Assembly: GCA_016213925.1 (NCBI GenBank)
Contig: JACQZH010000041.1
Coordinates: 73,352-137,351 of the forward strand
Origin: Candidatus Omnitrophota bacterium
GTDB taxonomy: Bacteria > Omnitrophota > Gorgyraeia > B26-G9
Direction: 5' to 3'
DNA length: 64,000 nt
Below the pieces are notes generated by a model. It saw nothing but the letters and a program-made list of their open reading frames with translations. It made no database searches and was not told where the DNA came from. Positions 1 to 39,861 of this stretch are shown here, piece after piece (within the stretch, counting starts at the first letter, position 1; the number at the start of each line of letters is the position of its first letter). The position numbers were made by a program, and so were the translations under genes.

Positions 1-1
1 T

Positions 2-817
2 GAAGGGCTATGGCAAGTTAATGAAACACAGGATGTGTTATCAATAACCATTGATTGGAAAAAAATACCTCTGCGCCAGATCTGGCAAATTAGAAGGATA
101 GAAAACGGATTTAACTGGCTTGTTTATTCGGACGTTAAAGCGCCGCTGAAAATAGAAAAGATAATCGGCGGGATCATGCTTGCTCCGGAATATGAGGAGT
201 GGTTTAATACCGTAGAACAAGGCAGATTCCCGCAATTTAATGAATCGTGGGAGAGTATTTTTTTGCAGGATACTAAAAGTAAAATTATAGGGGTAAAAGC
301 CAATGGGATACTGCCGGCGCTTATTGTAGAGAATTTGCAGCATGGAGAGATATTACTGCAAAATGCTCCGCAGAGCTGCTTAAGCAGGGCTTTACGCGTT
401 GAACTTAAAACACATAATGAGTTATTTGCAGCTAATCGATATAAATCTTTTAACTTGAATTTATACCTGATTTTCGGAGCAAAGAAATGCGAAAATTTTG
501 TTAAGCAGAAAAGCAATCAGCTGCTTAAGTCAAAAGAGCTTGGCGAAGGCAGTTTGCGGCTTAAATTATCCGATTCTTCCGTGCATCTTTTTTGGAATGA
601 TCTGCAGCTAAGCGTAAATCAGGGGCTGCATTCAGCATTGTTGGTCAATAACGAATGGTTTGACTCAAGTAAATGCGATTGGAAAATTGAAAGAATTAAT
701 GATCAATGCATTTATATTGATATTGACTGGAGGCCTCTGCCCGTGAAGCAATCATGGCAGTTAAATATTATCGATGAAAATTCTTTCTCCTGGAAAGTAA
801 AAACGTATTTTAAATAG
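2..817 (+). CDS. Trp-rich repeat-domain protein, 5'-truncated by the window edge; ends at TAG 815-817 but is in frame with the next ORF (probably the same gene)
   Basis: The frame is open from position 2 (EGLWQVNETQDVLSITIDW...). It contains two or more copies of a roughly 110-aa repeat (motifs G-L-W-Y/F-D-S-S...W; IDW..P..Q.W; KAGI.L...Y..WF....G.FP) that recurs in ORFs 839..3409 and 5669..9433. Confidence 0.5.
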   Translation, partial: EGLWQVNETQDVLSITIDWKKIPLRQIWQIRRIENGFNWLVYSDVKAPLKIEKIIGGIMLAPEYEEWFNTVEQGRFPQFNESWESIFLQDTKSKIIGVKANGILPALIVENLQHGEILLQNAPQSCLSRALRVELKTHNELFAANRYKSFNLNLYLIFGAKKCENFVKQKSNQLLKSKELGEGSLRLKLSDSSVHLFWNDLQLSVNQGLHSALLVNNEWFDSSKCDWKIERINDQCIYIDIDWRPLPVKQSWQLNIIDENSFSWKVKTYFK

Positions 818-838
818 GGGAAAACTGATTTAATTAAA

Positions 839-3409
839 ATGCGCTCGCTTGGACTGATTCTAAATCCGCAATATGATAGATGGTTCGGCGGGTACGAATC
901 CGGATTTTTCCCGGCGGAGTTTAGCGGCTGGCGTGAGATGATAGAAGATAAGGAAAACGGCTCGGCTGTAGGAGTTGTCGGTAATGAAAACCTTCCGGCA
1001 GTATTTTTTAAAAATACCGCTGATAATCAGTCAGTGCTTATTGTTCAGAACTCGGATGAAAAGTCAAAAGCCCGGTTTATACAGTCGGTGCTTACAAATG
1101 GAGGAGATATTTCGGGAAAATCTAATAATGAGGCGGATTTTTCCATAGAAATCAGCATTGTTGAGGACAATAGCCGAGTTGCGCAATATCTGGCAAAAAG
1201 GATAGACGAAGAAATTATCAAGAATGGGATTAGTAAGGGAAGTTTGAAATTAATAGCAGACTCCGGGAAAATGCGCACTTTCTGGCAGGGCAGGGAGATA
1301 ACTGCGGATATCGGTTTGCATACGGCAATATGTTCAAGCGGGTATTGGTATGATTCCGGGAAAATGAAGTGGCAATTGGATAAAGTATCGACGGACAAGC
1401 TGCTGATAAAGGTTGATTTTAATCCATTCCCGGCTATACAGACCTGGGAATTATTTCTTGAAGACGAAAAAACTATTTATTGGAATGTTACGATGGAAAT
1501 TTCAAAGCAGGTAGAGATAAGCGAACGCAAAGCAGGGATTATCCTAAATGGCGAGTATAAAGAGTGGTTTAATTCTTTCGAGCAGGGGGAGTTTCCTGAA
1601 CGCTTTACTTTTTGGCATGACATAATCCGCAATCGGGATGGAGAGACTTTCGGGGTTTATCCCGAAAGCGGGCTGCCTGGCGTTATGTTTAGCATAGATG
1701 ATAATCACTTATCGCTAATCCAGAATACGGATGAAAATATTAAAGGGCGTGTTTTTCAAGGGCAGGTAGTGGAAATTGAGCAGACAAAGAAATATTTACC
1801 GCAAAAGTCGCTGGATTATTTTAAAGGGAAAATAAGGCTTGTTGCTGATAAAAAGGAGATAATAGAGCATAAAAAAATTGCGCAGCCGCTTTCTTATAGG
1901 ACAGAGTCAATCTATTTGTATGGAGATTCGAAGGTCTTGCATAACCGTATTGCCAGGTGCGATGAATTCGATGCTAAAATTAAAAAAATCAAAGATTTTA
2001 TTGATCAGGGCATGCCTGTGTCTGTAGTTGTAGGCATTAGCCGTTATAACTTTTTTAAAATTCATGAGATTCTGCAGTTTTTGGCAAATCATCTGGGTAA
2101 AAATGCTGATTTTCGTTCATTTAAGTTATCGGTTTTTCCGCTTAATAAATTACGCAGGAATTTCATTGAGTATCTGGAAGAGCTGAAAAAAATTGCCAAA
2201 AATATCCTTGGCGTGGAATTTGCTTTAGTTGATGAGGAGTTGTTTAATATTATTATTTCGATTGGTTCTCAAGCAGACCAGGGTAATGAACGCCAGCTGT
2301 TAAGGCTTTTGGGAATAATCTCTGAACATGCTTTTATCGGGCCTCAAATCGTCGTTATTGATCCTTACCATAGATGTAATGCCAATTGTATACACTGCTG
2401 GGTGCATACGCCCGGGGTGCATCATTCTAAAGAATATTATGATACAAAGCTTGATTTGAAAAAATTTAAAAGCATCGCGGATGATTTAGCAGAACTAATG
2501 ACTGATCTGATTATTTTCCAGGGCGACGGAGAACCATTGATGAATGATGAATTTTTTGACATGGTTCGTTATGCCAGAGGAAAAGGGATTAAAGCATCTT
2601 TCTTCACAAACGGTATTTTGCTTAATAAAGATATCGCTAAAGAAGTTATTGAGATGGGAGTTGATGAAATCTTTTGCAGTTTGCCGGCAGGTACTGCTGA
2701 TACGTTTGCTAAAATAAATACAAAACAAAAACCTGAAATATTCTTGAAAGTGCTTGATAATCTAAAATATCTTTGCCAATTGAAAAAGAAAATGCCGGTG
2801 AATAAGCCGCGGCTGATTATGACACATGTCATACACAACATGAACGCGCATGAGCTGATTGAGATGGCAAAGAATGATATTGCTATAGGTGCTGATATAA
2901 TGAGGTTTTACCTTATCAGGCTTGATGAGAATATTGAATTTTTAAGATTAAACGCGGAAAACGTTAAAGATGTGAAGCGTTCTTTGCCGCAAATAAAAGA
3001 GATGGCCAAGGGCAAAAGCATTCAACTGCTGGATACAACGGAATTTCAGCTTAGTAATTTTGAGGAAAATACCGGCGCGTGGTCAAAGGATGTCTTCCTG
3101 AATAATGGCTGCACCTTGGGCTGGAATTTTTCTTTAATTCCCGCTTCCGGAGAGGTGAGTTTCTGCTGTCATTTACGTACAGTTGGTTATCTTGAAAAAA
3201 TGTCATTTAAGCAGATTTGGGATTCTCAAGAGTACAGGCAGTTCCGTTATCAGGCAAAATTTTTGAAGAAAAATGCCAAGACTAAATTCTTAAATGGGAC
3301 AACGATGTTTGACGATTACTGCCAGCATTGCGATACGCACCAGGTTATCCGTGATGTCTGGGATCAGTTTAAATTATACAAACTGGAAAAATTTTTCAAT
3401 GAAACATAA
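839..3409 (+). CDS. repeat-domain / radical SAM-SPASM fusion protein (continuation of the preceding ORF, same frame)
   Basis: N-terminus carries about 3 copies of the Trp-rich repeat (GYWYDSGKMKWQL...FPAIQTWELF...KAGIILNGEYKEWF). Radical SAM cluster motif CNANCIHC (CxxxCxxC) and GDGEP glycine-rich motif. C-terminal Cys-rich SPASM/twitch-like region (GCTLGW...SFCCHL...CQHCD). Confidence 0.7.
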   Translation: MRSLGLILNPQYDRWFGGYESGFFPAEFSGWREMIEDKENGSAVGVVGNENLPAVFFKNTADNQSVLIVQNSDEKSKARFIQSVLTNGGDISGKSNNEADFSIEISIVEDNSRVAQYLAKRIDEEIIKNGISKGSLKLIADSGKMRTFWQGREITADIGLHTAICSSGYWYDSGKMKWQLDKVSTDKLLIKVDFNPFPAIQTWELFLEDEKTIYWNVTMEISKQVEISERKAGIILNGEYKEWFNSFEQGEFPERFTFWHDIIRNRDGETFGVYPESGLPGVMFSIDDNHLSLIQNTDENIKGRVFQGQVVEIEQTKKYLPQKSLDYFKGKIRLVADKKEIIEHKKIAQPLSYRTESIYLYGDSKVLHNRIARCDEFDAKIKKIKDFIDQGMPVSVVVGISRYNFFKIHEILQFLANHLGKNADFRSFKLSVFPLNKLRRNFIEYLEELKKIAKNILGVEFALVDEELFNIIISIGSQADQGNERQLLRLLGIISEHAFIGPQIVVIDPYHRCNANCIHCWVHTPGVHHSKEYYDTKLDLKKFKSIADDLAELMTDLIIFQGDGEPLMNDEFFDMVRYARGKGIKASFFTNGILLNKDIAKEVIEMGVDEIFCSLPAGTADTFAKINTKQKPEIFLKVLDNLKYLCQLKKKMPVNKPRLIMTHVIHNMNAHELIEMAKNDIAIGADIMRFYLIRLDENIEFLRLNAENVKDVKRSLPQIKEMAKGKSIQLLDTTEFQLSNFEENTGAWSKDVFLNNGCTLGWNFSLIPASGEVSFCCHLRTVGYLEKMSFKQIWDSQEYRQFRYQAKFLKKNAKTKFLNGTTMFDDYCQHCDTHQVIRDVWDQFKLYKLEKFFNET

Positions 3410-4376
3410 GAACATTACTTTTTTATTCCAAGGAAGAAGGTTTTCTTTAAGCTTGGGCGGAAAACTTTGTTTGCTTGTGATAAGTATTTGTTTTGCGTTA
3501 ATGATTGCTGAGCTTGCAGTACGGGTATTTGTTAAGGTTCCATTGAAGAAAGAGTATATGAGGTTTGCTAGTTTGAATTACGCTTTTATCCCTGAAGCAA
3601 TGCGGGATAAAGAACTGCTTTGGCTGCCGCGCAAGTATATTAGACAGACAAAATATCAAAAAGATAATAATAGTAGGATAATTTGCATAGGGGATTCTAA
3701 TACTGAAGGCCATAGCAGCCTAAGGATAGAGCAAACTTATCCTTATGCATTGGAGAAAATTTTTAAACAAGAAGGGCATAACAAAACGGTTGAAATTATA
3801 AATGCCGGTTCTTCAGGATATAGTTCTTTTCAGGGGCTGGCGTATTTACGCAAAGAAATTTATAAATATGAGCCTGATTTAGTGATTAGCTGGTTTGGAG
3901 TGCAGGATAGTTCCTGCGCCTGGTTTTATGAAGATAAAGCGCAGGATGCCTTAGAATATCCGGATGATAATAATAGTTTAATGAATTCCAGCAGGTTCTA
4001 TTTATTTATAAAAAATTTTTTCTTTTTAAGTGAAACCTTAAGGAAAAAAATTCCGCGTGTTTTGCCGCAAGATTACATGGCTAATTGCCGCGAAATGCTG
4101 AAGATTTCCAAAGAAAAAGGATTTAAAATGGCATTCATTGTGCCGTTTCACTTAGATTTAAAAAAAAATAAGGTTTTTTATTATGAAGAATATAAAGAAT
4201 TATTGTTGTCACTTGAAAAAGAAACAGATTGTTTGATTATAGATGTTGTCCCCTATTTGTTTGGAAAGAATATAAAAGAGTTATTTTTGGATAGTTGCCA
4301 TCCTAGCGGTAAAGGCAATGATTTTATTGCCGGTATTGTATTTAACGATTTGAAACATAAACAGTTGTTTAACTGA
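3399..4376 (+). CDS. membrane-anchored SGNH/GDSL family hydrolase
   Basis: N-terminal TM helix. Block I ICIGDSNTEG (GDS), block III NAGSSGYSS, block V DSCHPSGKGN (DxxH). Start trimmed to ATG 3399, in frame and overlapping the upstream stop by 11 nt. Confidence 0.65.
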   Translation: MKHKNITFLFQGRRFSLSLGGKLCLLVISICFALMIAELAVRVFVKVPLKKEYMRFASLNYAFIPEAMRDKELLWLPRKYIRQTKYQKDNNSRIICIGDSNTEGHSSLRIEQTYPYALEKIFKQEGHNKTVEIINAGSSGYSSFQGLAYLRKEIYKYEPDLVISWFGVQDSSCAWFYEDKAQDALEYPDDNNSLMNSSRFYLFIKNFFFLSETLRKKIPRVLPQDYMANCREMLKISKEKGFKMAFIVPFHLDLKKNKVFYYEEYKELLLSLEKETDCLIIDVVPYLFGKNIKELFLDSCHPSGKGNDFIAGIVFNDLKHKQLFN

Positions 4377-4406
4377 AAATAAGCGTTGAAAAATTAAAAA
4401 TTTCCG

Positions 4407-5396
4407 ATGAGATTGAGATTTGCTTTTGGCAGGCATAAATATAGAGTCAAAAAAATAACACTGGTTTTTTTGTTTGGCACAGCTTTATTAGCAGCGTTAT
4501 TTTTAAGCGAGATCTTGGTCAGGTGTTTGTTTTCTTTTCCCGAAAGGGGATTTTATTTTAAATTCCGCCATATTAAAAATTTTTATATACCGCAAAGATT
4601 ACTGGATGGGGAATTATTTTGGAAGCCAAAACCTGAATTCCTAGGCTTAAAGTACGCGGAAAAAAAAGGCGATGGCGTTTTTCGGATTATTTGTATCGGA
4701 GATTCGGTAACGCAAAGTTATGATATTTCAGGCAGGCCTCAACCGCTAAAACAGACTTATCCCTATCAGTTGCAGTCTTTGCTTGAACGAATTATCGGTA
4801 AAGGCAGGGTTGAGGTTTTAAATGCCGGGATTGGAGGGTACAGTTCTCTTCAGGGACTTAGGTATTTACAGCGCAGTTTATGGAAATATAATCCGGATTT
4901 AGTGATAAGCTGGTTTGGTGTAAATGACCATAGTTTGGCTTTATTCTATCCGGATAAGGAGCAGCGGCTGTTTGTGAGTGCTGATATTAGGAAAAAAAAA
5001 TTACTTGAAAACAGTGCGTTATTTCTTTTTTTGAGGAATGAATTTTTTATAAAAAAAAAGCAGCGCGTGTCACCTGCTGAATATTTTGCTAATTGCGAGC
5101 AAATGGTGTTATTGGGAAAGGAAAAAAAATTTAAAATAATTTTTATCGCGCCATTTGAATATGAAAAAAAAATAAAGCGGGCAAATTATTATGACGAGTA
5201 TAAGCATGTATTGGAACTTTTGGCGGTAAAATATAATATAAGGGCCTTCGATATTTTACCGGCAGTTTGCATGTCTACGGATGCGGGCAATGTTTTTATA
5301 GATAATTGCCATTTTAATCCGGATGGCAATGCTATTGTTGCCAAGGCGATTTTTAATTTTTTGAAAGATGAGGAGTTTATACAAAGGTTAAAATAG
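4407..5396 (+). CDS. membrane-anchored SGNH/GDSL family hydrolase (tandem paralog of 3399..4376)
   Basis: ICIGDSVTQS, NAGIGGYSS, DNCHFNPDGN; N-terminal TM helix. Contains three A9 homopolymer tracts. Confidence 0.65.
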   Translation: MRLRFAFGRHKYRVKKITLVFLFGTALLAALFLSEILVRCLFSFPERGFYFKFRHIKNFYIPQRLLDGELFWKPKPEFLGLKYAEKKGDGVFRIICIGDSVTQSYDISGRPQPLKQTYPYQLQSLLERIIGKGRVEVLNAGIGGYSSLQGLRYLQRSLWKYNPDLVISWFGVNDHSLALFYPDKEQRLFVSADIRKKKLLENSALFLFLRNEFFIKKKQRVSPAEYFANCEQMVLLGKEKKFKIIFIAPFEYEKKIKRANYYDEYKHVLELLAVKYNIRAFDILPAVCMSTDAGNVFIDNCHFNPDGNAIVAKAIFNFLKDEEFIQRLK

Positions 5397-5684
5397 ATGA
5401 AAATTTTACTTGTTAATTTACCTTGGAAAAATGCTGATAGATGGGGAGTGCGTGCCGGATCGCGCTGGCCGCATATAAAGGACGCGACCGAAGAAAATTA
5501 TCTGGCTTTTCCGTTTTATCTTGCGTATGCCGCGGCGCTATTAAGAAAAAATGGTTTTGATGCAGTGATTATTGACGCGATAGCGCAACGGCTTTCCTAT
5601 GGTGATTTTTTAAAAAAAACTGAAGAACTAAAGCCTGATTTGCTGGTTGCGGAGACGTCTACAGTACCTTGCTTGAGCTTGTAA
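5397..5684 (+). CDS. N-terminal half of a B12-binding domain; fragment of the disrupted fusion gene that continues in another frame at 5669
   Basis: MKILLVNLPW...LAYAAALLRKNGFDAVIIDA...KPDLLVAETST matches the start of B12-binding radical SAM proteins. It stops at TAA, and the downstream ORF continues the same family alignment in frame +2. Confidence 0.4.
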   Translation: MKILLVNLPWKNADRWGVRAGSRWPHIKDATEENYLAFPFYLAYAAALLRKNGFDAVIIDAIAQRLSYGDFLKKTEELKPDLLVAETSTVPCLSL

Positions 5685-8600
5685 AAGCGCTTGAAAATAA
5701 TAACCCGCTGGGAACAGTGCAAGGGCTTATTTACCGTAATAAATCAGATGTGGTAAAAAACTCGCCGCGTACTTTAATTGCCGATTTGGATCAATTGCCC
5801 TGGCCGCTTCGCGAAGGATTGCCGGTTAAGCGTTACAATGATGCTCCGGGGGATATTCCTATCCCTTGCGCTTCAATGTGGGCAAGCCGTGGATGCCCGT
5901 TTGGCTGTTCGTTCTGTCTTTGGCCGCAGGTAATGTACGGGGGTAATTCTTACCGCGTGCGCAGCGTAAAAAACGTAGTTGATGAAATGGAGTATCTTAT
6001 AAAAGAGTTGGGATTTAAATCCGTATATTTTGATGATGATACCTGGAATATCGGTTCTGAAAGGATTATTGCTTTTTGTGATGAACTGGAGCAAAGAAAA
6101 TTGAATGTGCCGTGGGCAATTATGGCAAGAGCAGAATTGATGAATGAGTATTTACTCGAAAGGATGCGCAAGGCAGGATTGTATGCGGTAAAATACGGGA
6201 TTGAATCATCTTCGCAAAAGATCGTTAATGATACCGGAAAGAGGCTTAATCTTGAAAAAGCGGAGGAGATGATAAGGTATACGAAGTATCTGGGGATAAA
6301 GACTCATTTAACGTTTACTTTTGGATTGCCCGGAGAAACGCAGCAAACAATTAATGAAACAATAGAATATGCTTGCAGGCTTAATCCTACTTCAGTGCAG
6401 TTTTCTCTGGCAACGCCTTTTCCCGGGACAAGATTTTACGATGAAATGGAGAAAAAAGGATATATAGTCTCAAAAGATTTAGAAAAGCTTGATGGTAATC
6501 ACAGCAGCGTGATCAGAACGCAAAGCCTTAGCGCCCGCGAACTGCAGCAAGCGAAGAAAAAAGCTTATATAACTTGGAATAGGCATTGCCGGTTTAAACG
6601 GCAAAGGCTAAAATTTCCTCAAAAAACTATAAAGGAAAAATTTGACGCTTCATTGCTGGAATACGGGTTATTTTATACAACAATGAAAATTTTGCGTTAT
6701 ATTTTGAGGCGTTTGCTGATTATCCCGTGGAAAATCCGCAGCTTTTTTAATGCAAATCTCTGGATTATAGAAGAAATTATAACTGCCGGGAATATTTCGA
6801 TTAAGTTCGGCGAAGGGCAAGTGCGCGTATACTATAATAATATAGAAATTTCAAAAGGGATCGGGATTACGGCTTCATTTTATTACGGAGAACGTTGGTT
6901 TGATTCTTCTCGGGCTAACTGGAAGCTTGAGAAAGATTCAGAGAAAAGCATAAGAGTTAAATTGACCTGGGATGATATCCCCATACGGCAATCATGGACA
7001 ATTTTGATTGGTGAAGAAGGGAAAATAAGCTGGAATAGCAAGCTTCAAGTACAAACTGCAGTACAGCTGCTTGAGTATAAGGCTGGAATCATGCTTCAGG
7101 AGCAATATACTAGATGGAAAGATGAACTTGGTGTTGGAAATTTCCCGAAAATAACTCAATGGGAAGAAATTGAATTATATAACGCTAATTCCCGCAGGCT
7201 TTTTGTTTTTAAAGAGGCTGCGGAAAGTAATAGCCAGATGCCGGAAGTCGAATTAGCGCTGAAAACAGCAAACAGGCCAAACATATATCCGCAGATACAA
7301 AATACTGATATAAAAACGAATGCTCGGATTATTCAGATGCGCAGTTTGCGAATTGAGCAGTTTGTCCCGGGAGAATATGCATATTTTGATCTGGAAATAT
7401 TTTTGCATAAAAAAAACTTGATAGCGCAGAATGTATCTGCGCTTAAGAAAAGAACTCCTTTAGGAATAATTAAGGCGCAGATTGCTCAAAATGGGGCTTC
7501 TACGGTGCTGCGTAAAATTATTAAAAACCTGCATCCGGTAAAACTTTCGGATTATTATACGGATATTGTCGGAGTTATGGACGGTTCCTATGCGTATAAG
7601 GGGCCTTATTGCGTGCAAATCGATCTGACCAACGATTGTAATAACGATTGTGTCGGCTGCTGGTGTAATTCACCGCTTTTGAAAGAGCGAAAAATCAGCA
7701 AGGAGATAAAGCAGCAGGCATTACCTTTGGATGTAGTGAAAAAAACAATTGATGATTTGGCGCTAATGGGAACTAAAGAGATATATTTTGCCGGAGGCGG
7801 AGAGCCGTTTATGCATGCGCATATTATGGAGATACTTGAATATGTCAAAGCTAAAGGATTAAAGTGTTATATAAATACAAACTTTACGTTGGTAACCGAA
7901 AATATGGTTAAACGGCTTGTGGAGATTGGAGTTGATCATTTGGTTGTAAGTGTATGGGCAGGAACTGCACAGACATATAAGCTTACGCATCCCAATAAGT
8001 CAGAAGAGATGTTTTATCAGATAAAAGGGATGTTAAAGCTGCTTAATTCTTTAAAGGACAATGTGCCGCAGGTTAATGTGTATAACATTATTTTTAACCG
8101 GAACTTTAAAGAATTGCCGCAGATGGTTGATTTCGCGCTTGAAGCCGGAGCCGATTCACTTGAATTTACGGTTATTGACACGATCCCTGAAGCGACGGAT
8201 ACACTGATTTTGGACGAAGGACAACGTTTACAGGTTTGCGGTGATTGTGAGAATATTCAAAAACGTTTGGAAGGTGAGCTTAAGGGAAAGATAAAAATTC
8301 TTCAGTTTGAGCAATTCTTGCGCCGCGTGAATAATAACGCCGCGCAAAAAGCTGAATATGATGATAATATTCTCGCGGAAATACCGTGTTATATCGGTTG
8401 GATTTTTGCCCGGATACTTGCTGACGGAAATGTTAACTTTTGCCTGAAAGCGCATCGTATTCCGGTGGGGAATATTTACGCGCATTCTTTTTCGCAAATC
8501 TGGAATAACCGCAAGCAACAGGAATTCCGTATAAGAGCACTGTGCCAGGAAAAAACCGATCCATTTTTTTCGTTTATTGGGAATGATCCGAATGTTCAGG

Positions 8601-9433
8601 TAGGTTGTTTTAAGGGCTGTGATGACCTTGCGAGGAATATCCGTATGCATGAAAAAATTCAATCGTTAACACGACCGGAATTTATTTTTTTGCGCATTGT
8701 GCTTATTTTAAAGAAAATGCTGCGTTTATATCGGACAAAAGCGCTTTCCAGCACGTTTAAAAAACGGTTACAAACAACTAAAAGGAAGCCTATACTTTCT
8801 TCCGGTAAACTTAGTATTGATTGCTGTGAAGACGGGATTAAACTTTACTGGGATGGTAAAGAGTTGACAGAAAGCGTGGGATTAAATACTTCAGTGTGCG
8901 TATATGGTTTATGGTATGACTCTTCAAGAGCTGAATGGGAAATAATGGGAAATTCTCATGCAAGATGCGTAATCCGTAATACTTGGAAAAATATTCCGGT
9001 TTCACAGCTATGGACGATTACAACGGATAATGATAATCTTATAAAATGGGATGTAAAGATGATTGTAGATACAAGAATTGATATAGAAGAAAGTAAAGCA
9101 AGCATAATCCTCAATTCCCGATATAAAAAGTGGATTGCCGGAGATGATCTTGGGTTCTTTCCCCGGGAAATGTCTTGGAATGAAGTTCAGATCCCCGGGA
9201 AAGCGGTTAAGAACATAGGAGTTCAATCAGTAAAAGATAAAGACTGGAAATTTCCTTCTGTGCAGATTATCTTTTTGGAAAAACAGGAAGGTGTTAAACC
9301 TCAATTGCAAAATGCCGGTAAAAAGATAAATGCGCGGTTATTGTCCGTACGCAAAGCTTCTGAAGATGGAGAAACAATATATCTGCCGGGAGAACATGAT
9401 ATCTTTTCACTGCAAATTAAAGTGATGGAATAA
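5669..9433 (+). CDS. giant multidomain fusion: (B12-)radical SAM + Trp-rich repeat + second radical SAM-SPASM + Trp-rich repeat
   Basis: First radical SAM: RGCPFGCSFC. Repeat: YYGERWFDSSRANWKLE...IPIRQSWTIL...KAGIMLQEQYTRW. Second radical SAM: CNNDCVGC, GGGEPF, then Cys-rich SPASM-like tail (NFCLKAH...CQEK...GCFKGCDD). C-terminal repeat: GLWYDSSRAEWEI...IPVSQLWTI...KASIILNSRYKKWI. The ORF-track start is TTG; the true start is uncertain. Confidence 0.7.
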   Translation: MLELVKALENNNPLGTVQGLIYRNKSDVVKNSPRTLIADLDQLPWPLREGLPVKRYNDAPGDIPIPCASMWASRGCPFGCSFCLWPQVMYGGNSYRVRSVKNVVDEMEYLIKELGFKSVYFDDDTWNIGSERIIAFCDELEQRKLNVPWAIMARAELMNEYLLERMRKAGLYAVKYGIESSSQKIVNDTGKRLNLEKAEEMIRYTKYLGIKTHLTFTFGLPGETQQTINETIEYACRLNPTSVQFSLATPFPGTRFYDEMEKKGYIVSKDLEKLDGNHSSVIRTQSLSARELQQAKKKAYITWNRHCRFKRQRLKFPQKTIKEKFDASLLEYGLFYTTMKILRYILRRLLIIPWKIRSFFNANLWIIEEIITAGNISIKFGEGQVRVYYNNIEISKGIGITASFYYGERWFDSSRANWKLEKDSEKSIRVKLTWDDIPIRQSWTILIGEEGKISWNSKLQVQTAVQLLEYKAGIMLQEQYTRWKDELGVGNFPKITQWEEIELYNANSRRLFVFKEAAESNSQMPEVELALKTANRPNIYPQIQNTDIKTNARIIQMRSLRIEQFVPGEYAYFDLEIFLHKKNLIAQNVSALKKRTPLGIIKAQIAQNGASTVLRKIIKNLHPVKLSDYYTDIVGVMDGSYAYKGPYCVQIDLTNDCNNDCVGCWCNSPLLKERKISKEIKQQALPLDVVKKTIDDLALMGTKEIYFAGGGEPFMHAHIMEILEYVKAKGLKCYINTNFTLVTENMVKRLVEIGVDHLVVSVWAGTAQTYKLTHPNKSEEMFYQIKGMLKLLNSLKDNVPQVNVYNIIFNRNFKELPQMVDFALEAGADSLEFTVIDTIPEATDTLILDEGQRLQVCGDCENIQKRLEGELKGKIKILQFEQFLRRVNNNAAQKAEYDDNILAEIPCYIGWIFARILADGNVNFCLKAHRIPVGNIYAHSFSQIWNNRKQQEFRIRALCQEKTDPFFSFIGNDPNVQVGCFKGCDDLARNIRMHEKIQSLTRPEFIFLRIVLILKKMLRLYRTKALSSTFKKRLQTTKRKPILSSGKLSIDCCEDGIKLYWDGKELTESVGLNTSVCVYGLWYDSSRAEWEIMGNSHARCVIRNTWKNIPVSQLWTITTDNDNLIKWDVKMIVDTRIDIEESKASIILNSRYKKWIAGDDLGFFPREMSWNEVQIPGKAVKNIGVQSVKDKDWKFPSVQIIFLEKQEGVKPQLQNAGKKINARLLSVRKASEDGETIYLPGEHDIFSLQIKVME

Positions 9434-9434
9434 A

Positions 9435-11084
9435 ATGCAAAAGATTATATTAGTTAACACTCCTCCATGGGGAACGGCAATGCCTCCATTAGGAGTGGCT
9501 TATTTAGCTACTTATTTAAAGTCAAAGGGAATAGATATTGATACTTTTGATTTGAACCTTGAATTATTTTTAAATTCCGGGGATAAGGAAAAAGTTTTTT
9601 GGGGGCTTGACGCAATAAATAAAATTCCGGTACAAACGATTGCAAATAATATATTTTCAAGTTTTATGCCGTATTTAGAAAAATTTTTTTCTTTTACGGC
9701 AAAATATGATCTTATCGGTTTTTCGGCAAATAATCTTATTAGCACGACTTTTGCCGGAATTCTGGCTGAACATATAAGAAAACGCTATCCTGAAAAAATA
9801 ATTATTCTTGGCGGGCCGGGATGTTTTCATAGTTGGGATAGGAGCGTAGTGCCACAGGGAAGCGTTGATTTTTTTGTTATAGGCGAAGGAGAAGAGACCT
9901 TGCATCAGCTTATTTGCGTTTTACGTTCCGGTATTGATAAAAATGGGGGTTCAGAACCTATTCCCGGAGTAATTGATAATAGAACAGGAAAAAAGCAGCG
10001 GTTTATTCCGCGAAGAGAGATTAGAGACATTAATAGTATCCCCCATCCGACATTTGAGGAATTTTCATTTACAAAGTACGAAAGTTTTCCTGGATATCAT
10101 CCTTTGCCTATGCTTATGAGCCGTGGCTGTATAAATGAGTGCAGTTTTTGTATTGACTGTTATATGAGTTCGCCGTTTCGTATGCGTGCTGCCGGCAATA
10201 TCGTTGAAGAAATAAAATATCATAAAAACCGTTATGGAATAACTCATGTGGAGTTTAATGACCTGCTTTGTAACGGCAACATATATCAATTGGAACAGTT
10301 TTGTGATTTGATGATCAGGGAATCTTTGGATATCCGCTGGATAAGTTATGCGGCAGTGCGCAAAAACATGAGTGAAGATTTACTTAAGAAGATGAGACAG
10401 GCTGGTTGTACTTCTTTATGCTACGGGCTTGAAAGCGGATCGGATAATGTGTTGAAAAAGATGAATAAACATTATGGCGCATCTGATGCGGCAGAACTGA
10501 TTAAAAAAACAGCAGCGGCGGGAATAGAAGTTAGAATTAATATTATAGTTGGTTTTCCCGGGGAAACTGAACGGGATTTTGCCCAGACACTTACTTTTAT
10601 CAGGGAAAATAAAGATTATATCAGGCAGGTGACCAATGTTTCTTCTTTTGTTTTAATGCCGTCAGCTCAGTTGGCAATTACTCCGCATCGTTATGGGATT
10701 AGTTATTTAGATTCGGATGATTTAGGCAAGTGGACAGACGATAACCGGCTAACGCAGGATGAACGCAATAACCGCGTAAAAAAAACATGCCGGTTACTAG
10801 CCGAATTGCAAATAGATAACCTTATTATTAATTTACAGGAACCTGTCTGCAAGGATGGTGATCGTGGCGTTTTGCACGCGGCAGGTGAAAAAAATAATAT
10901 TAGGGAAGAAACAAAAGAGAATATTTGCGCTAAAGCAGTGTTTAAGGAAAAAAAATACCGGCGGGAAAATAAACTTTTTAAATTTTTAGTATTAGCAGGC
11001 TTATTGCTTTTTAGTGTTATTGCTGACCTGTATTTATTCATCATAAAAAAAATTAGAGGGTCAATAATTTTTCCTGGAAGCTGA
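9435..11084 (+). CDS. B12-binding radical SAM protein with C-terminal TM helix
   Basis: N-terminal B12-binding-like domain (IILGGPGCF...FFVIGEGEETL); radical SAM SRGCINECSFC; C-terminal hydrophobic helix. Confidence 0.7.
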   Translation: MQKIILVNTPPWGTAMPPLGVAYLATYLKSKGIDIDTFDLNLELFLNSGDKEKVFWGLDAINKIPVQTIANNIFSSFMPYLEKFFSFTAKYDLIGFSANNLISTTFAGILAEHIRKRYPEKIIILGGPGCFHSWDRSVVPQGSVDFFVIGEGEETLHQLICVLRSGIDKNGGSEPIPGVIDNRTGKKQRFIPRREIRDINSIPHPTFEEFSFTKYESFPGYHPLPMLMSRGCINECSFCIDCYMSSPFRMRAAGNIVEEIKYHKNRYGITHVEFNDLLCNGNIYQLEQFCDLMIRESLDIRWISYAAVRKNMSEDLLKKMRQAGCTSLCYGLESGSDNVLKKMNKHYGASDAAELIKKTAAAGIEVRINIIVGFPGETERDFAQTLTFIRENKDYIRQVTNVSSFVLMPSAQLAITPHRYGISYLDSDDLGKWTDDNRLTQDERNNRVKKTCRLLAELQIDNLIINLQEPVCKDGDRGVLHAAGEKNNIREETKENICAKAVFKEKKYRRENKLFKFLVLAGLLLFSVIADLYLFIIKKIRGSIIFPGS

Positions 11085-11140
11085 AACAGCGTTTAGAGAT
11101 TAGCGGGCAGCGATTAGATAAAAACAAAAAGGATGTAAAA

Positions 11141-12316
11141 GTGAAGATATTGATGGTTCATCCGCATGATTTATTTTCTAAAAAAGAGCCGTGGACAACA
11201 CGTATAAGAAATATCGCGCTTGAGTTTAAGAAAAAAGGGCATGATGTTAAAGTTGTTTATTTTCCTTTGGAGTATAAGGGGTTCGAGAAAAGGTTCTTTT
11301 TGAATGATATTGAGTTTATCCCTTTGAGCCGCCGAGTTGGAATAATGCCGTTAGCGCAAAATATCCGTTTTCTTTTTAAAGAATCAAAATGGGCAGATGT
11401 AATCCATTTTCAAAAATGTTTTTACTATGCGGCGTTGCCGGCGCTTATTGGCGCGTTTTGCAGTGAAAAACCAGTGCATTACGACTGGGATGACTGGGAA
11501 ATAAAAATATTTCATTATAGCGCGAAGCAGCCATGGCTTATCGGGATTTTTTTAGCAGCATTGGAACGCTGGATTCCTTGCCTTTGTGATACGGTTTCTG
11601 TCTCCAGCATTCGTTTGAGGGAAGAATGTCTGCGTTATGGAATATCAGCCGAATCTATTGTCATGGCTCCGGTTGGTGCGGACCTTGATTTATTTAATCC
11701 GGCGGTTTCCGGAGTGCGTATCAGGGAAAGATTTAATATTAAAGGCCAGTTAGTAAGCTATCTTGGGCAATTGCATGGGGGCCAGTATGTGGAACAATTT
11801 ATTAGGGCTGCAAAAATAATACTTAATAAAATGCCCCAAACAATATTTATGATTATTGGCGGGGGATACCAGCTTGATGCTTTAAAGAAAATGGCGGATA
11901 GCTTGCAATTGAGTGAAAAATTAATATTTACTGATGCTGTTCCCCATAGGGAAACTGCTCAATATATCGCTGCTGCTGACGTAACAGTTGCTTGCTTTGA
12001 AGATAATGATATAACCCGTTGCAAGAGCCCGCTTAAGATTGCTGAATATCTTGCCAGCGGTAAACCGATTGTAGCTAGTGATGTCGGAGAGGTTAAACGG
12101 ATGCTTGCCGGCGCAGGGATTGTAACAGCTCCGGCAGACCCTGAAGATTTGGCTGCTGGAATTATAAAAATTCTGGAAGATGAGCCGTTAAGAAAAAAGA
12201 TTGCTTTGCATGCGCGAAAAAGAGCAGAGGACATTTATAATTGGAAGAATACTGCGGATAATCTGCTTTTCGCATATCAAAAGGTGTTTCAGTATAAAAA
12301 AGGTAAAGAGGAATAA
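11141..12316 (+). CDS. glycosyltransferase family 4 (GT-B)
   Basis: C-terminal EX7E-type motif KSPLKIAEYLASGKPIVASDVGE; GT4-like length and layout. GTG start per ORF track. Confidence 0.65.
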   Translation: MKILMVHPHDLFSKKEPWTTRIRNIALEFKKKGHDVKVVYFPLEYKGFEKRFFLNDIEFIPLSRRVGIMPLAQNIRFLFKESKWADVIHFQKCFYYAALPALIGAFCSEKPVHYDWDDWEIKIFHYSAKQPWLIGIFLAALERWIPCLCDTVSVSSIRLREECLRYGISAESIVMAPVGADLDLFNPAVSGVRIRERFNIKGQLVSYLGQLHGGQYVEQFIRAAKIILNKMPQTIFMIIGGGYQLDALKKMADSLQLSEKLIFTDAVPHRETAQYIAAADVTVACFEDNDITRCKSPLKIAEYLASGKPIVASDVGEVKRMLAGAGIVTAPADPEDLAAGIIKILEDEPLRKKIALHARKRAEDIYNWKNTADNLLFAYQKVFQYKKGKEE

Positions 12317-13493: not shown

Positions 13494-15182
13494 ATGAATA
13501 TATTAGGGATTTGCGACAGTCAGGATGCAGGCGCAGTATTGTTTGATACTGTTAATAATAGTTTTACTGCAGTGAACGAAGAAAGGCTTTGCCGGATAAA
13601 ACTTAAAGGCGGATTTCCTAAAGAATCAATTAGGGAAGTTCTTAAGTTAAAGAATCTAGAGGCCTCTGATATCGACGTAGTTGCGATAGCTTCTTATATG
13701 ACGCCGTCTTGTGTTTTTAGAGCAATTCCGGAAATTCATGAGAATCTTAGAAAAGGGAGAAAACAGTTTAGTCTCTTATTATCAATATATATCTTATACC
13801 AAGTTTTTGCGCACAAGACGAAAATTGCCGAATATTTGGAATCCTGGTTGTCAAAAATTATCATCAGATGGAAATTGAAAAAGATCGGGATAAAATCAAA
13901 GGTTGTTATTATCGAGCATCATAGCGCGCATGCGTATGCCGCGTATGCTACTTCAGGAACAAATAAAGCTCTAATTTTCACAATTGACGGGTTAGGTGAT
14001 GGGGTAGCTTTCACGGTTAATATCGGCGAAGGCGGAAAAGTTAAACGAATATATGAGCAGAGCGCTTTTTGTGGTATTACATTATATTATTCCAGATTAA
14101 CAGAATTTTTGGGATTCTTGCCTATTCAGGATGAGGGGAAAGTGATGGGTTTGGCTGGTTACAGCAGCGAATATCCTGTTTTAGCGCAAGCACGAAAGCT
14201 GCTTGGAATTACGGCAAAAGGGTTTAAATATAGAAATATATTTTTTAATTTTTCAAAGGATAAGAAGGTTTTTAACGGGCTTAAGAACAGGAAGAAAGAA
14301 GAAATCGCTGCTTCGTTCCAATTTTATCTTGAGCAGAAATTAGGCGAGATAGTGCGATATTGGGCGAGAAAGACGCAAATTTATGATGTAGTGCTTGGCG
14401 GCGGATTTTTCGCGAATATTAAAGTAAATCAAAAAATAGCTGAATTAGAAGAGGTTAAGAGTGTGTATGTGTATCCGCATATGGGAGACGGAGGGCTGGC
14501 GTTAGGTGCTGCGTGCGCTTTAAAAAAAATAAAGCCGTTTTTTTTAAAAAGTATTTTTTGGGGCCCGTCTTTTACAAATGAATATATCGGCAGTCTTTTG
14601 AAAAAATCCGCTTTTAAATACGAGTTTATAGAAGATATCGAAGCTCATACTGCTCTACTTTTGAGCAGAGGCTATATTGTTGGACGTTTATGCGGGGCTA
14701 TGGAGTATGGCCCCCGTGCTTTGGGGAACCGTTCGATTCTTTGTCAGGCGACAAATACTAAAATTCATGGATTACTTAATAATAAGCTTAAAAGAGATAC
14801 ATTCATGCCGTTTGCTCCGGCAATATTAGCTGAATTCGCACCGCTTTGCTGCGAAGGCGCAGAGAAAGCGGAATATTCTGCGAAGTTTATGAATATGAGC
14901 TTTAAATGCACGGAGTATTTTAAAAAAATTTGCCCCGCGGCTATTCATGTAGATGGGACAACTCGGCCGCAGTTTGTTTGTGAGGATAGCGGCAGTTTTT
15001 ACAAAATTCTTAGCGAATATAAAAAAATAACCGGCATTCCGGCATTAATTAATACTAGTTTTAATATCCATGAAGAACCGATTGTTTGCCGGCCTGAAGA
15101 GGCAATAAAAACATTTATCGAAGGTAATTTGGATTATCTGGTGTTAGAAAATTTTTTAATAAAAGGAGGAAATAATGAATAA
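13494..15182 (+). CDS. carbamoyltransferase (NodU/CmcH family)
   Basis: N-terminus MNILGICDSQDAGAVLFD...NEERLCRIK, HHSAHAYAAY and overall length are typical of O-carbamoyltransferases. ATG 13494 follows a GAGGG RBS. Confidence 0.65.
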   Translation: MNILGICDSQDAGAVLFDTVNNSFTAVNEERLCRIKLKGGFPKESIREVLKLKNLEASDIDVVAIASYMTPSCVFRAIPEIHENLRKGRKQFSLLLSIYILYQVFAHKTKIAEYLESWLSKIIIRWKLKKIGIKSKVVIIEHHSAHAYAAYATSGTNKALIFTIDGLGDGVAFTVNIGEGGKVKRIYEQSAFCGITLYYSRLTEFLGFLPIQDEGKVMGLAGYSSEYPVLAQARKLLGITAKGFKYRNIFFNFSKDKKVFNGLKNRKKEEIAASFQFYLEQKLGEIVRYWARKTQIYDVVLGGGFFANIKVNQKIAELEEVKSVYVYPHMGDGGLALGAACALKKIKPFFLKSIFWGPSFTNEYIGSLLKKSAFKYEFIEDIEAHTALLLSRGYIVGRLCGAMEYGPRALGNRSILCQATNTKIHGLLNNKLKRDTFMPFAPAILAEFAPLCCEGAEKAEYSAKFMNMSFKCTEYFKKICPAAIHVDGTTRPQFVCEDSGSFYKILSEYKKITGIPALINTSFNIHEEPIVCRPEEAIKTFIEGNLDYLVLENFLIKGGNNE

Positions 15183-22216: not shown

Positions 22217-23701
22217 ATGGCTAAAAAAACTATTTTTTTCAGAAAAATTCAATTTAAAAATAATTGGGATCTTTTGAGCGTGCTTTTTTTTGCCGCTTTT
22301 TTTATAAGGCTGGCTTTTTTGGCTGCGTGTGATAATTTACAAGGTGCTGGCCCGATGCTAAATATTATTACGGCACTGCATGTTTTTAAATCGCCTTCTT
22401 TATTGGAAAATATTTATTATGGACTGTTACCGTTATACCTATATTCATTAGCGCTTGCTGTTAATCTTGGGACGGAACAGATTTTATCCGCGCAATTTTT
22501 AAGCTTATTTTTCGGCAGTTTTTCCGCGGTGCCGTTTTATTTGCTTATCCGCCGCTTTAGCGATAAAAAAATTGCGTTTTATGCCGCAATGTTTTTTTGC
22601 TGTTACCCCGCGCATATAAATGCGAGTATTTTGAGTATGCCGGAGGCAGTTACACTATGCCTTCTCTTATGGGCAACATATTATATTCTTAATTATAGTG
22701 CGAGTTTAGCTGCGCTGTTTTTAGCTTTGGCGTGTGGTTTTTCGTATCTTGCTTGGCTATTTATCCCGATTTTTATAACTATTTATTTATCCTGCAGCCA
22801 GAAGGCCGAGTATAAATGGCCCTCGGGAAGGATTCGCACTACAGGCGAAAGGAATTTAATGGCCCGAAGGACTTCATTTGAAAGGCATCATACAATTGCT
22901 TTAAGGATCGAAGAAGCGATACTGATATTTTTTATTTGCACGATTTTCCCGCTGATATGGGTTAAGTTAGTTGCGGCTAAATACAATGGCTGCGGGATTT
23001 TTTACAAAAACTTTTATGAAGCTAGATCATTCCTGGAATTTATTTTTGCTTTTACAGATACTGTGCGAATGTTAATGTCTAAGTTGTTTAATGCGCCTTT
23101 GCCGTTATTTTTTGTATTTGGACTTGCTGGGCTTTATCAGAGCGCACGCTTAAAAAAATTTTATCCCTTTATCTTTATTGTCGGAATGCTTGTTCTTTTA
23201 TCCAGTATTAATATTTTTAGGGAAGATATTTTTTTACTGGATGGAATCATTTTAATTGCGGGCGTGTTTTATATACCTTTTATAATTGAAGGTATAATGT
23301 TCATCATGAAGACATTATTTTTGAAAATTAATTTTTTTAGTAAAACATTGATTTTGTTAAGCGTGTTATTATTGTTAGGCATTGGGATGTACGATAGGCC
23401 TTATTTGCCGAAAAGAGTGAAGGTTCTTAGTTCGTGGATCAAGGATAACATTGGAACGCAGGATATTATTTTTATAAATAAGGACAGCAATGGATATTAT
23501 ACTTCGGTGATTATGCTTAGTGGTTTACCTCAAGGGAATTTTTTTGCACGAGAGAAGGAGCAAAGTTTAGAAATAAAGAGACTTGATTCTACTCGTAGTT
23601 ATTTTGTTATTTTAGATAGGCGGGAAAAAGAAATAAATTTTACTGAAAGTTGGGAAAAGGTTTATTCTCAAGATGCATATGCAATTTATAGGATATTATA
23701 A
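22217..23701 (+). CDS. polytopic membrane protein, putative GT-C family glycosyltransferase (paralog 3 of 3)
   Basis: Same architecture (DNLQGAGPMLNIITALHVF...). Multi-TM. Confidence 0.4.
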   Translation: MAKKTIFFRKIQFKNNWDLLSVLFFAAFFIRLAFLAACDNLQGAGPMLNIITALHVFKSPSLLENIYYGLLPLYLYSLALAVNLGTEQILSAQFLSLFFGSFSAVPFYLLIRRFSDKKIAFYAAMFFCCYPAHINASILSMPEAVTLCLLLWATYYILNYSASLAALFLALACGFSYLAWLFIPIFITIYLSCSQKAEYKWPSGRIRTTGERNLMARRTSFERHHTIALRIEEAILIFFICTIFPLIWVKLVAAKYNGCGIFYKNFYEARSFLEFIFAFTDTVRMLMSKLFNAPLPLFFVFGLAGLYQSARLKKFYPFIFIVGMLVLLSSINIFREDIFLLDGIILIAGVFYIPFIIEGIMFIMKTLFLKINFFSKTLILLSVLLLLGIGMYDRPYLPKRVKVLSSWIKDNIGTQDIIFINKDSNGYYTSVIMLSGLPQGNFFAREKEQSLEIKRLDSTRSYFVILDRREKEINFTESWEKVYSQDAYAIYRIL

Positions 23702-23704
23702 ATT

Positions 23705-24796
23705 ATGAAAGTAATATTTATCAGCCGGGAGAATATTGATATGCCTGCTGTGCGGGTACGCTGTTTTGGTTTTGCGCGTTTTCTGGAAAAAGCAGGAATA
23801 GATACACAGGTATTTTCTTTTGCTCAAAGCGTGGGAGCGAAAAGCGGTAAAGAAGAAGCAAAAATGAATTTTTTTGAAAAGCTCAAATATAATTTTGAGG
23901 CATACTTACGGTTAGCCCCGGAAGATGCAGTCCTTATTCTGCAGCGTTGCAATTATCATTCTCTTGCGCCTTTGCTCTTGAAATTTTTTAAGAAAAAAAA
24001 GCTTGTGCTTGATCTTGATGATTGGGAGGCGCGGGAAAATACGCAGTATTACTTTAATAAATTGCCTAATTCAAAAGCTGAAATTGCAATGCAATTAATT
24101 GCTAAATCAAGTATTTTTTGCATAGGCGCAAGTAAATTTCTGGTTGATTATTTGGCCAATTATAACCGCAAAGTTGTGTATATCTCGACAGCTGTTGATA
24201 CTGATTTTTTTAAACCGGGTAATAACATAGGTAAGCACAACGGCATTACGGTATCATGGCTGGGAACGATATACCGCAAAGATAATATAGAGAATATAAA
24301 TTTTTTAATGGAATGTTTTGAGGAAATCTCGGATTCTTCTAATGATGTTAGCCTTGAGATCGCAGGGGATGGATTATACGTGCAGGATGTGTTAGATTTG
24401 GTAACGAGGAAAAAAAAACGGAATATCCGCTTTAAAAGCTGGATCACTCCGGATGAGGTGCCGGCATATCTTGATGGTATTGACATTGGGGTAATGCCTT
24501 TGATTCAGGATACTAAGTTCAATAAGGCCAAAAGCCCGACACGTTTGTTTGAATATATGGCAATGGGAAAACCGGTTCTTGCCAGCCGCATCGGAGAAGC
24601 GTCTTTAATAATCAATGATTCAGAGAACGGTTTTTTAGCGGGCAGTAAAAAAGAGTTTAAGGACAAGCTGAAAATTTTGATAAAAGAAAAGAAACTTAGA
24701 CATGATTTGGGCGTGTGCGGCCGTAATACTGTATTAGAAAACTATTCGTTAGAAAAAAATGCTAATAAGCTTGTTGAGGCGCTTAAGATGTTATGA
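23705..24796 (+). CDS. glycosyltransferase family 4 (GT-B)
   Basis: KSPTRLFEYMAMGKPVLASRIGE (EX7E-like motif). Confidence 0.65.
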   Translation: MKVIFISRENIDMPAVRVRCFGFARFLEKAGIDTQVFSFAQSVGAKSGKEEAKMNFFEKLKYNFEAYLRLAPEDAVLILQRCNYHSLAPLLLKFFKKKKLVLDLDDWEARENTQYYFNKLPNSKAEIAMQLIAKSSIFCIGASKFLVDYLANYNRKVVYISTAVDTDFFKPGNNIGKHNGITVSWLGTIYRKDNIENINFLMECFEEISDSSNDVSLEIAGDGLYVQDVLDLVTRKKKRNIRFKSWITPDEVPAYLDGIDIGVMPLIQDTKFNKAKSPTRLFEYMAMGKPVLASRIGEASLIINDSENGFLAGSKKEFKDKLKILIKEKKLRHDLGVCGRNTVLENYSLEKNANKLVEALKML

Positions 24797-28264: not shown

Positions 28265-28814
28265 GTTAAAGTATATTAGTTTAGTTTTTATTGCTGGATT
28301 GGTCTTTAATAATTGTATTGTTTATGCCCAAGAGACAAATTTTAGATTCCCGGCCAATGTTGCTACGGGGAGCTGGCAGGTGTCTGAAATAGAAGGGAAA
28401 GAAGTTATTACTACAGCGGAATCAGATGCTTTTGAACAAATTAATATAATGGTACCGAAGGAGGGGAATTATCAGCTGTATGTAAGTTTATATCATCGCT
28501 GGATAGAGTTCGCTCCTTTTTTATATGCAAGAATAGTAGACAGCAAGGGAAAGGTTCATCATAGCTATGTATTTTCAGAGCCGCGCTGGTATTTAGAAAA
28601 AGGCCAGGGCCGCTGGGAATACCGCTGTTTTAGCGCTGAACCGTATTGGCATTTGCCAAAAGGCAGGTTAAAAATTAAATTTTGGGTAAAAGCAAAAAGA
28701 TCGAGCTGGAAACAAGATGATGTGCCTATGCCGGCGGATATTTCAATAGGTGATTTTGTGCTTGTGCCGGTTAATGAACAAACTAATGAACAGTTGAATT
28801 TGACATTACCGTAA
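28254..28814 (+). CDS. secreted hypothetical protein
   Basis: Sec-type signal peptide (ISLVFIAGLVFNNCIVYAQE). Confidence 0.4.
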   Translation: MLSKLKYISLVFIAGLVFNNCIVYAQETNFRFPANVATGSWQVSEIEGKEVITTAESDAFEQINIMVPKEGNYQLYVSLYHRWIEFAPFLYARIVDSKGKVHHSYVFSEPRWYLEKGQGRWEYRCFSAEPYWHLPKGRLKIKFWVKAKRSSWKQDDVPMPADISIGDFVLVPVNEQTNEQLNLTLP

Positions 28815-28829
28815 AATTCTAAGGATGAA

Positions 28830-29831
28830 ATGACAATTTCTTATAAAATTGCTACTGCTTTGCAGTTTGCGAAAGCGAAATTATTGAAGCGGAAAATTCC
28901 TTTGATTGTCAGCTGGGCGATTACTTATCGGTGTAATCAGGCCTGCCTATATTGCCAATGGCCAAAAGTTAATTCCTTGGAAGTTTCTACGAAAGAAGCA
29001 TGCTTAATTATTGATAAGCTTGGTTTCTTGGGAACAAAAAGGATTAATTTTACCGGAGGAGAACCGCTTTTACGGAAAGATATTTCGGAATTGGTAGATT
29101 ACATAAAAAACCGCAAGATGTTTGTGTGTATAAACTCTAATGGGGTTTTAATCCCAACTAAAATTACCCGCTTAAAACGGCTTGATCTGCTTAATTTGAG
29201 TTTGGAAGGTCCTGTAGAAATTCATGACTGTATTAGAGGTGCCGGAGGATATGCTGCGGTTATGGCGGCGGCAGAATCAGCGCGCTTAGCTGGTGTGAAC
29301 GTAAAACTTACAGCAACAATAAACAATTTAAATGCTTGTGTCCTAGAGTATATCATAAAAATAGCCTGGAAATTGAACCTGGAAGTTACTTTTCAAGTGG
29401 TGGATGATTATAAACTCGGTTGTTTGTCGGAAAACCCGCTTAAGTTAAAATCAGGAGAATTGCAAAAAGCACTTAGCTTAATTATCGCGTACAAGAAACA
29501 ATCTAAGTATAAGGCGGTCATCGGTAATTCTTTGGCGTTACTGGAATATCTTTTGCAGTGGCCTAATCTGGTACCGCTTAAATGTGCGTCCGGAAATATT
29601 GTTTTCCGGATTACCCCTGACGCAAAACTTTTTACCTGTGCTGCGGCTACATTTAAGGAGTTGGCGGTTAGTAATAATTGGATTGATCTTAAAGATAATA
29701 ATGTTAAGGAGATAAAAGCAGTACTTAAGGGTTTTGATTTTTTAAATATTAAATGTGTTTGTTCCTGCAGCAACAGATTGGCAGTTAGTTTGCTCTGGGA
29801 CATGAGTTTGCGGCTAAAAAAAAAGTTTTGA
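28830..29831 (+). CDS. radical SAM-SPASM/twitch protein (paralog of 33596..34606)
   Basis: SWAITYRCNQACLYC, TGGEPLLRKD, C-terminal Cys cluster (LKCASG...FTCAAA...CVCSC). Confidence 0.65.
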   Translation: MTISYKIATALQFAKAKLLKRKIPLIVSWAITYRCNQACLYCQWPKVNSLEVSTKEACLIIDKLGFLGTKRINFTGGEPLLRKDISELVDYIKNRKMFVCINSNGVLIPTKITRLKRLDLLNLSLEGPVEIHDCIRGAGGYAAVMAAAESARLAGVNVKLTATINNLNACVLEYIIKIAWKLNLEVTFQVVDDYKLGCLSENPLKLKSGELQKALSLIIAYKKQSKYKAVIGNSLALLEYLLQWPNLVPLKCASGNIVFRITPDAKLFTCAAATFKELAVSNNWIDLKDNNVKEIKAVLKGFDFLNIKCVCSCSNRLAVSLLWDMSLRLKKKF

Positions 29832-39846: not shown

Positions 39847-39861
39847 GAAGGTAAGACTAAA

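Follow-up and report, generated by a model that had tools for sequence, protein, structure and literature searches.

Single in-frame stop codons that split a conserved gene are known from bacterial surface-polysaccharide loci, where such nonsense-mutation pseudogenes lie in glycan islands, have intact orthologues in related genomes, stand next to a lesioned gene of the same pathway and are called as two open reading frames (ORFs) by annotation. The gene described here is alike in all of these respects. It lies at the beginning of a 64,000-nucleotide stretch of DNA, hereafter the window, from a Candidatus Omnitrophota bacterium (assembly GCA_016213925.1, contig JACQZH010000041.1, positions 73,352 to 137,351), and it encodes an enzyme of the radical SAM/SPASM type whose reading frame is interrupted by a TAG codon at 815-817. 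Nothing essential sets it apart from the known cases except that it comes from a metagenome-assembled genome (MAG) and belongs to an uncharacterised pathway, and as a phenomenon a nonsense-interrupted gene is ordinary and already known. In our assessment the TAG is probably a real nonsense mutation of very recent date, which cuts short a glycan-directed enzyme and lies in a gene module that this strain is losing.

Three other kinds of described systems are useful for comparison. Genes that use TAG for pyrrolysine, for example those for methylamine methyltransferase, likewise have an in-frame TAG followed by conserved coding sequence; in the present gene, however, the TAG is unconserved, falls in a variable loop and is an ordinary stop codon in the window. 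The enzyme itself resembles known radical SAM/SPASM enzymes such as the cytosylglucuronate decarboxylase BlsE, AhbD, PqqE and anSME, with which it shares the CX3CX2C motif, the PF04055 core and a C-terminal PF13186 domain. Unlike these, it carries a unique N-terminal extension of ~830 amino acids, made up of three supersandwich domains and a linker domain. Domains of the supersandwich fold are found at the N-termini of glycosidases of the families GH36, GH129, GH2 and GH38, in OpgG and in the P1 domain of YidC; those considered here have the same fold but only 6-13% sequence identity to them, and they occur in tandem and fused to radical SAM enzymes. Lastly, the N-terminal half of a broken neighbouring gene has its best NCBIfam similarity to TIGR03471, the family of the HpnJ-type B12-binding radical SAM enzymes. 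It scores far below the cut-off (224.8 bits against 577.6), and in contrast to HpnJ-type enzymes the protein carries a second radical SAM/SPASM unit along with two supersandwich domains and has lost its B12-binding core in this window.

One gene with an in-frame TAG

The TAG is in frame both with the open frame that enters from the edge of the window at base 2 and with the frame that runs from ATG 839 to the TAA at 3407-3409. The ORF listing gave the upstream piece as 35..817, because such a listing needs a start codon inside the window. The complete upstream fragment (P0045) has 330 amino acids, the first 59 of them encoded by 177 bases that precede the window; the remainder matches the window translation exactly, and its last residues are SFSWKVKTYFK. 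Reading through the stop gives 330 + 1 + 7 + 856 = 1194 residues, and the ~3.6 kb of this read-through frame contain no second stop and no frameshift. An earlier note on this stretch, made from the sequence alone, had described the TAG and seven sense codons (GKTDLIK) between two ORFs of the same frame; the translation bears this out, with an upstream fragment that is longer than the piece visible in the window.

When the read-through translation was used as a query, 19 proteins encoded in Candidatus Omnitrophota MAGs were recovered, all with 100% query coverage and E = 0 (45-62% identity by BLASTP, 53-66% in the alignment). They are 1176-1206 amino acids long, a range into which the 1194 residues of the read-through product fit. 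The window's own C-terminal ORF, on a contig of 143,880 bp, was also among the matches. Because these orthologues align across the stop over the whole query, the two fragments are homologous to parts of one protein and do not adjoin by chance. In the column of the stop, ten of the orthologues have Glu, eight have Asp and one has Asn, so that the comparison of orthologues for a sense codon, which the earlier note had proposed, found one in every case. For a comparison at the nucleotide level, 21 orthologous loci were fetched. The matches of the N- and C-terminal fragments are contiguous and in one frame in 13 loci, which are all the loci where both fragments match. Each gene in the 12 closest loci is a single open frame of 1185-1218 codons, and the codon at the stop site is GAA, GAG or GAT in 11 of them, the twelfth (L010) being gapped there in the alignment. 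Over the N-terminal fragment, identity to the close intact orthologues is 55-62%, except in three of the 12, where it is 42-49%. The interrupted region is one gene of 1194 codons that carries a nonsense codon. The earlier note had reached the same view, and it is now backed by the 19 intact orthologues and by some 13 intact close loci in which the site codes for Glu, Asp or Asn. It had also allowed for orthologues that encode two proteins divided at this point, and none were found. One relative is split, but elsewhere and by a different lesion: in a sister MAG of the one that holds P0001, the closest intact orthologue in the protein search, a run of five G has become four (G5 to G4) in CCGGGGGTT, just after the CX3CX2C motif. 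There, the same gene is represented by MCG2704149.1 (872 amino acids) and MCG2704148.1 (320 amino acids), on a contig of 21,767 bp compared with 21,768 bp.

Conservation on both sides of the stop was judged from invariant residues, defined as those identical in all orthologues. Upstream of the stop 36 of 36 are kept, and downstream 243 of 248, with five changes that are all conservative (L/F, V/I, L/I, V/I, K/R). In a leave-one-out test the intact orthologues themselves show 0-9 changes, a range that includes the five of the window gene. Since neither half shows decay, the lesion would have to be very young—by a rough estimate, younger than ~1-2% neutral divergence—or else not be real.

The sequence of events would then be a short one. 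A single base change would have arisen in the lineage of this MAG; as the close loci carry GAA, GAG or GAT at the site, a G-to-T change from GAG (Glu) to TAG would be its simplest and most economical form. With the TAG read as a stop, a truncated product of 330 amino acids would be made, and there would be at most some re-initiation at ATG 839, giving a product of 856 amino acids that begins inside a beta-strand. The full enzyme would presumably be lost or crippled in this way, and a companion deletion of 148 nucleotides in a partner gene (see below) would leave the whole module on its way to inactivation in this strain.

The repeat domain and the enzyme

The interrupted gene contains three copies of a repeat of ~205 amino acids that no Pfam model matches. 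After the second half of repeat 2, the C-terminal ORF encodes repeat 3, then an alpha/beta linker domain and finally the radical SAM core with the SPASM domain behind it. That the repeat alignment crosses the stop, as had been noted earlier, is also seen with a repeat profile, which matches the N-terminal fragment at 2-88 and the C-terminal fragment at 94-203. An AlphaFold (AF2) model of repeat 3, made from an alignment of 41 repeat units, is all-beta and has a predicted local distance difference test score (pLDDT) of 96.1. A Foldseek search of the PDB with this model gave 42 matches at E <= 1e-3, with a probability of 1.0 and a query template-modelling (TM) score of up to 0.69. They include mutarotases in addition to the glycosidase N-domains, OpgG and YidC P1 named above, and by structure the repeat belongs to the supersandwich (galactose-mutarotase-like) fold. 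Because Foldseek places the repeat with supersandwich domains of glycosidases and mutarotases, carbohydrate binding is pointed to, and going by the model the repeat domains are probably glycan-binding. The repeat family is rare, with 610 cluster representatives among 1.84 billion, and has 1-9 copies per protein. In the window itself, copies are found at 2-487, 548-1177, 1238-1858, 6788-7423 and 8804-9430.

A full-length model of P0001 (pLDDT 79) shows three supersandwich domains spaced by long helices, the alpha/beta linker domain, a radical SAM barrel and a SPASM region. The stop site corresponds to E330 of this protein, in a loop at 329-335, and in the repeat model to the turn between the strands 79-88 and 96-104; the Met encoded by ATG 839 falls within the strand that follows. 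By these models the stop bisects a compact domain and not a linker. The catalytic part can be assigned to the SPASM subgroup of the radical SAM superfamily by its motif together with PF04055 and PF13186, both above their gathering scores. No NCBIfam family reaches its curated cut-off for the interrupted enzyme, the best being TIGR04317 with 108 bits against 380, and among solved structures BlsE (7vob, E = 3.5e-6) comes closest by sequence.

A second broken gene and the surrounding glycan island

The interrupted gene does not stand alone. A module is conserved across Omnitrophota MAGs, as judged from synteny in the loci L001-L022. It begins with the three-supersandwich radical SAM/SPASM gene and continues with zero to three GDSL/SGNH hydrolase genes, a B12-radical SAM fusion gene of ~1400 amino acids and a B12-radical SAM gene of ~550 amino acids. 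In the window the fusion gene is also broken. A stretch of 148 nucleotides is lost at 5666/5667, which corresponds to 49 codons of the B12-binding core plus one nucleotide, and the gene is left as an ORF of 95 codons (5397-5684) and another of 1254 codons (5669-9433). In ten out of ten orthologues the protein reads ...ETSTV-TLxHDL...IALCGPD...GEYEA-TLLEL..., and in the window ETSTV is directly followed by (T)LLEL in another frame. Of 365 invariant residues 12 are changed in this gene, compared with 1-19 in the orthologues. The pair of lesions suggests that inactivation of the module as a whole is under way in this strain. A scan of positions 1-12000 for promoters and terminators gave results no different from those with shuffled sequences, and in the literature nothing on this module in Omnitrophota was found.

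Some details of the module concern the hydrolase genes. The ORF of the first one was listed from 3294, so that it would share 115 nucleotides with the radical SAM gene before it, and homology starts near residue 38-49. The real start is probably ATG 3399, overlapping the TAA stop by 11 nucleotides, and this overlap suggests translational coupling. In the locus L011 (13887-14802) the GDSL hydrolase gene of the module is frameshifted, the tblastn matches going from frame 3 to frame 1 near 14308-14336. The features of the module, and the lesion in the sister MAG, are collected in Table 1.

Table 1. Features of the interrupted gene, its module and the split relative (window positions unless a locus is named)
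Feature	Position	Strand	Evidence or remark
N-terminal fragment, last 271 of 330 codons	2..814	+	repeat 1 (partial in window) and first half of repeat 2
Premature in-frame TAG	815..817	+	sequence, orthologue column
Seven sense codons GKTDLIK, from the stop to ATG 839	818..838	+	homologous to KRxDLIx of the orthologues (alignment columns 335-341)
C-terminal ORF, 856 amino acids	839..3409	+	P0002 = MBI4846194.1 (NCBI 'radical SAM protein')
Supersandwich repeat 1, cut by the window edge	2..487	+	jackhmmer envelope
Supersandwich repeat 2, ~205 amino acids, bisected by the TAG at ~position 90	548..1177	+	jackhmmer envelope, split profile match
Supersandwich repeat 3, intact, the one modelled	1238..1858	+	jackhmmer envelope, AF2
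Radical SAM core	2363..2866	+	Pfam PF04055, 64.5 bits against a cut-off of 29.5
CX3CX2C motif CNANCIHC	2375-2398	+	inside the radical SAM core
SPASM auxiliary Fe-S cluster domain	3110..3271	+	Pfam PF13186, 37.4 bits against a cut-off of 21.5
Two GDSL/SGNH hydrolase genes	3399-4376, 4407-5396	+	Pfam, synteny
B12-binding radical SAM + supersandwich + radical SAM/SPASM + supersandwich gene, broken	5397..9433	+	intact orthologues of 1394-1443 amino acids
Intact B12-binding radical SAM gene, last conserved module member	9435..11084	+	
Lesion in the sister MAG (gene at 3237-6812)	L022:5817-5825		one G lost

Beyond the module, the window is mostly a single-strand island of cell-envelope glycan genes. 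It has 18 radical SAM genes of the B12-binding and SPASM types, a density that is unusually high, together with glycosyltransferases (GT1, GT2, GT4 and five PMT_2/GT-C proteins), a carbamoyltransferase, a deacetylase, an Asn-synthase (AsnB) homologue, an epimerase and YfhO. The only gene on the minus strand is a B12-radical SAM gene at 51094-52548. A non-coding gap of ~400 nucleotides (52549-52944) comes after it, perhaps marking the border of an operon or holding divergent promoters. A recent preprint describes surface-glycan loci in hypervariable regions of Omnitrophota genomes.

Other explanations and what the finding means

Several points weigh against a real and recent nonsense mutation. 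The nearest relative is only 68% identical, so that the ancestral codon is deduced from the orthologues and not observed; in fact the ancestral codon, the loss of function and the reality of the two lesions are all things that we infer. The ATG that lies 21 nucleotides past the stop could let the catalytic part be expressed, in which case less function may have been lost than the sequence leads one to expect. The absence of decay in both halves is equally expected if there is a sense codon such as GAG at 815-817 and the 1194-residue gene is intact. The TAG would then be a base-call or strain-mixture error, that is, an error of consensus or assembly or a minority allele captured in the MAG. Genes of the module are broken in other MAGs as well (the G5-to-G4 change in the sister MAG, the GDSL frameshift in L011), and an independent assembly of the strain that could confirm the base was not found: exact-protein look-ups with the C-terminal fragment, the N-terminal fragment and two intact neighbours gave no match, and scans of genome and metagenome contigs for the exact DNA pattern spanning the TAG, the codon itself being left free (NNN), were likewise empty. 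On the other hand, the other 44 genes of the window have complete domains and are uninterrupted, and since none of them is split the assembly does not appear to be generally error-ridden. The companion lesion is a deletion of 148 nucleotides, which is atypical of base-call error. Because two independent lesions fall within one 9-kb module of an otherwise clean 64 kb, a real and linked loss of the pathway is favoured over random base-call error, and a sequencing, assembly or consensus artefact is considered unlikely, though worth bearing in mind. A different possibility is that the nonsense mutation is real and the gene is now functionally split, with re-initiation at ATG 839 and a product of 856 amino acids that is still active, alone or together with the 330-residue fragment. 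The closeness of this ATG to the stop, the full conservation of the catalytic half and the existence of relatives with varying repeat number are in line with this. There is no Shine-Dalgarno motif before ATG 839, and this is no obstacle, as such motifs are rare throughout the window, with most of its genes lacking one, so that its absence says nothing on re-initiation. However, the cut is modelled amid a compact beta-supersandwich, with the new N-terminus inside a strand; no orthologue is cut at this place, the partner enzyme of the module is broken too, and the conservation is equally well explained by a young lesion. A functional split is thus judged improbable.

The remaining possibilities have to do with how the TAG is read. 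Taken broadly, the idea that it is not a dead end, either because it is decoded (by a suppressor, as pyrrolysine or through leaky readthrough) or because re-initiation yields a working two-piece enzyme, seems to us highly improbable. Site-specific decoding in particular, by programmed readthrough, an amber suppressor tRNA or pyrrolysine, would give the full protein of 1194 amino acids, and would fit with the stop being a TAG that is followed by an open and conserved frame. Yet in pyrrolysine genes one would look for a TAG conserved among orthologues, and at this variable loop position the orthologues have ordinary Glu, Asp or Asn codons. General Pfam scans of the window genes gave no match to Pyl-related families within the window, tRNA and Rfam scans of the 64 kb were both without a match, the RNA at the stop folds no better than shuffled sequences (z = 0.19), and in the literature nothing on recoding in Omnitrophota was found. 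The base after the stop is a G, which in terms of the termination contexts of E. coli is not a leaky context. TAG also works as a terminator in the window: the 46 other genes end in TAA (22), TGA (19) or TAG (five), and at 13307 and 31443 another stop follows the TAG within one or two codons, as a back-up. The earlier note was right in citing 5394-5396 and 54466-54468 as ordinary TAG stops, and its ranking of a recent nonsense mutation or an artefact above recoding holds. That it also counted programmed readthrough among the likelier options finds no support in these results, and going by the window and its orthologues we regard any site-specific decoding as very unlikely. A genome-wide reassignment of TAG to a sense codon is refuted by the window itself and has practically no probability left. 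It could draw on the fact that three of the six TAG-terminated ORFs run in the same frame into the next gene, but two TAA stops with short gaps do so as well, and the TAG at 815 is the only one that sits within a gene in 64 kb. In four pairs of genes that share a frame, just a stop and a short gap lie between the two members (23699-23707, 28812-28832, 39844-39864 and 5394-5399; two with TAA and two with TAG). Same-frame continuation after TAG was considered as a sign of recoding and rejected, since it is also seen after TAA, since the flanking genes are complete and separate architectures (GDSL hydrolase then B12-radical SAM; deacetylase then GT2), and since their frames differ in the orthologous loci.

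The split gene has no bearing on the genetic code, and the significance of what is probably a recent nonsense mutation lies mainly in annotation and quality control. The ORFs of 330 and 856 amino acids, the latter deposited as MBI4846194.1, are best regarded as the two parts of a single disrupted gene, and as the adjacent B12-radical SAM gene is also disrupted, the pathway should not be counted as present in this MAG. If re-initiation at ATG 839 did yield a working two-piece enzyme, the gene would be an example of fission in progress within a beta-supersandwich domain. More interesting than the stop are the supersandwich-radical SAM family and the glycan island so dense in radical SAM genes. 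What comes out of the comparison is an uncharacterised, Omnitrophota-centred family of radical SAM/SPASM enzymes with tandem supersandwich domains that resemble glycan-binding ones; its definition is more useful than the stop itself, and an intact orthologue such as MBU4305245.1 is suited for its study.

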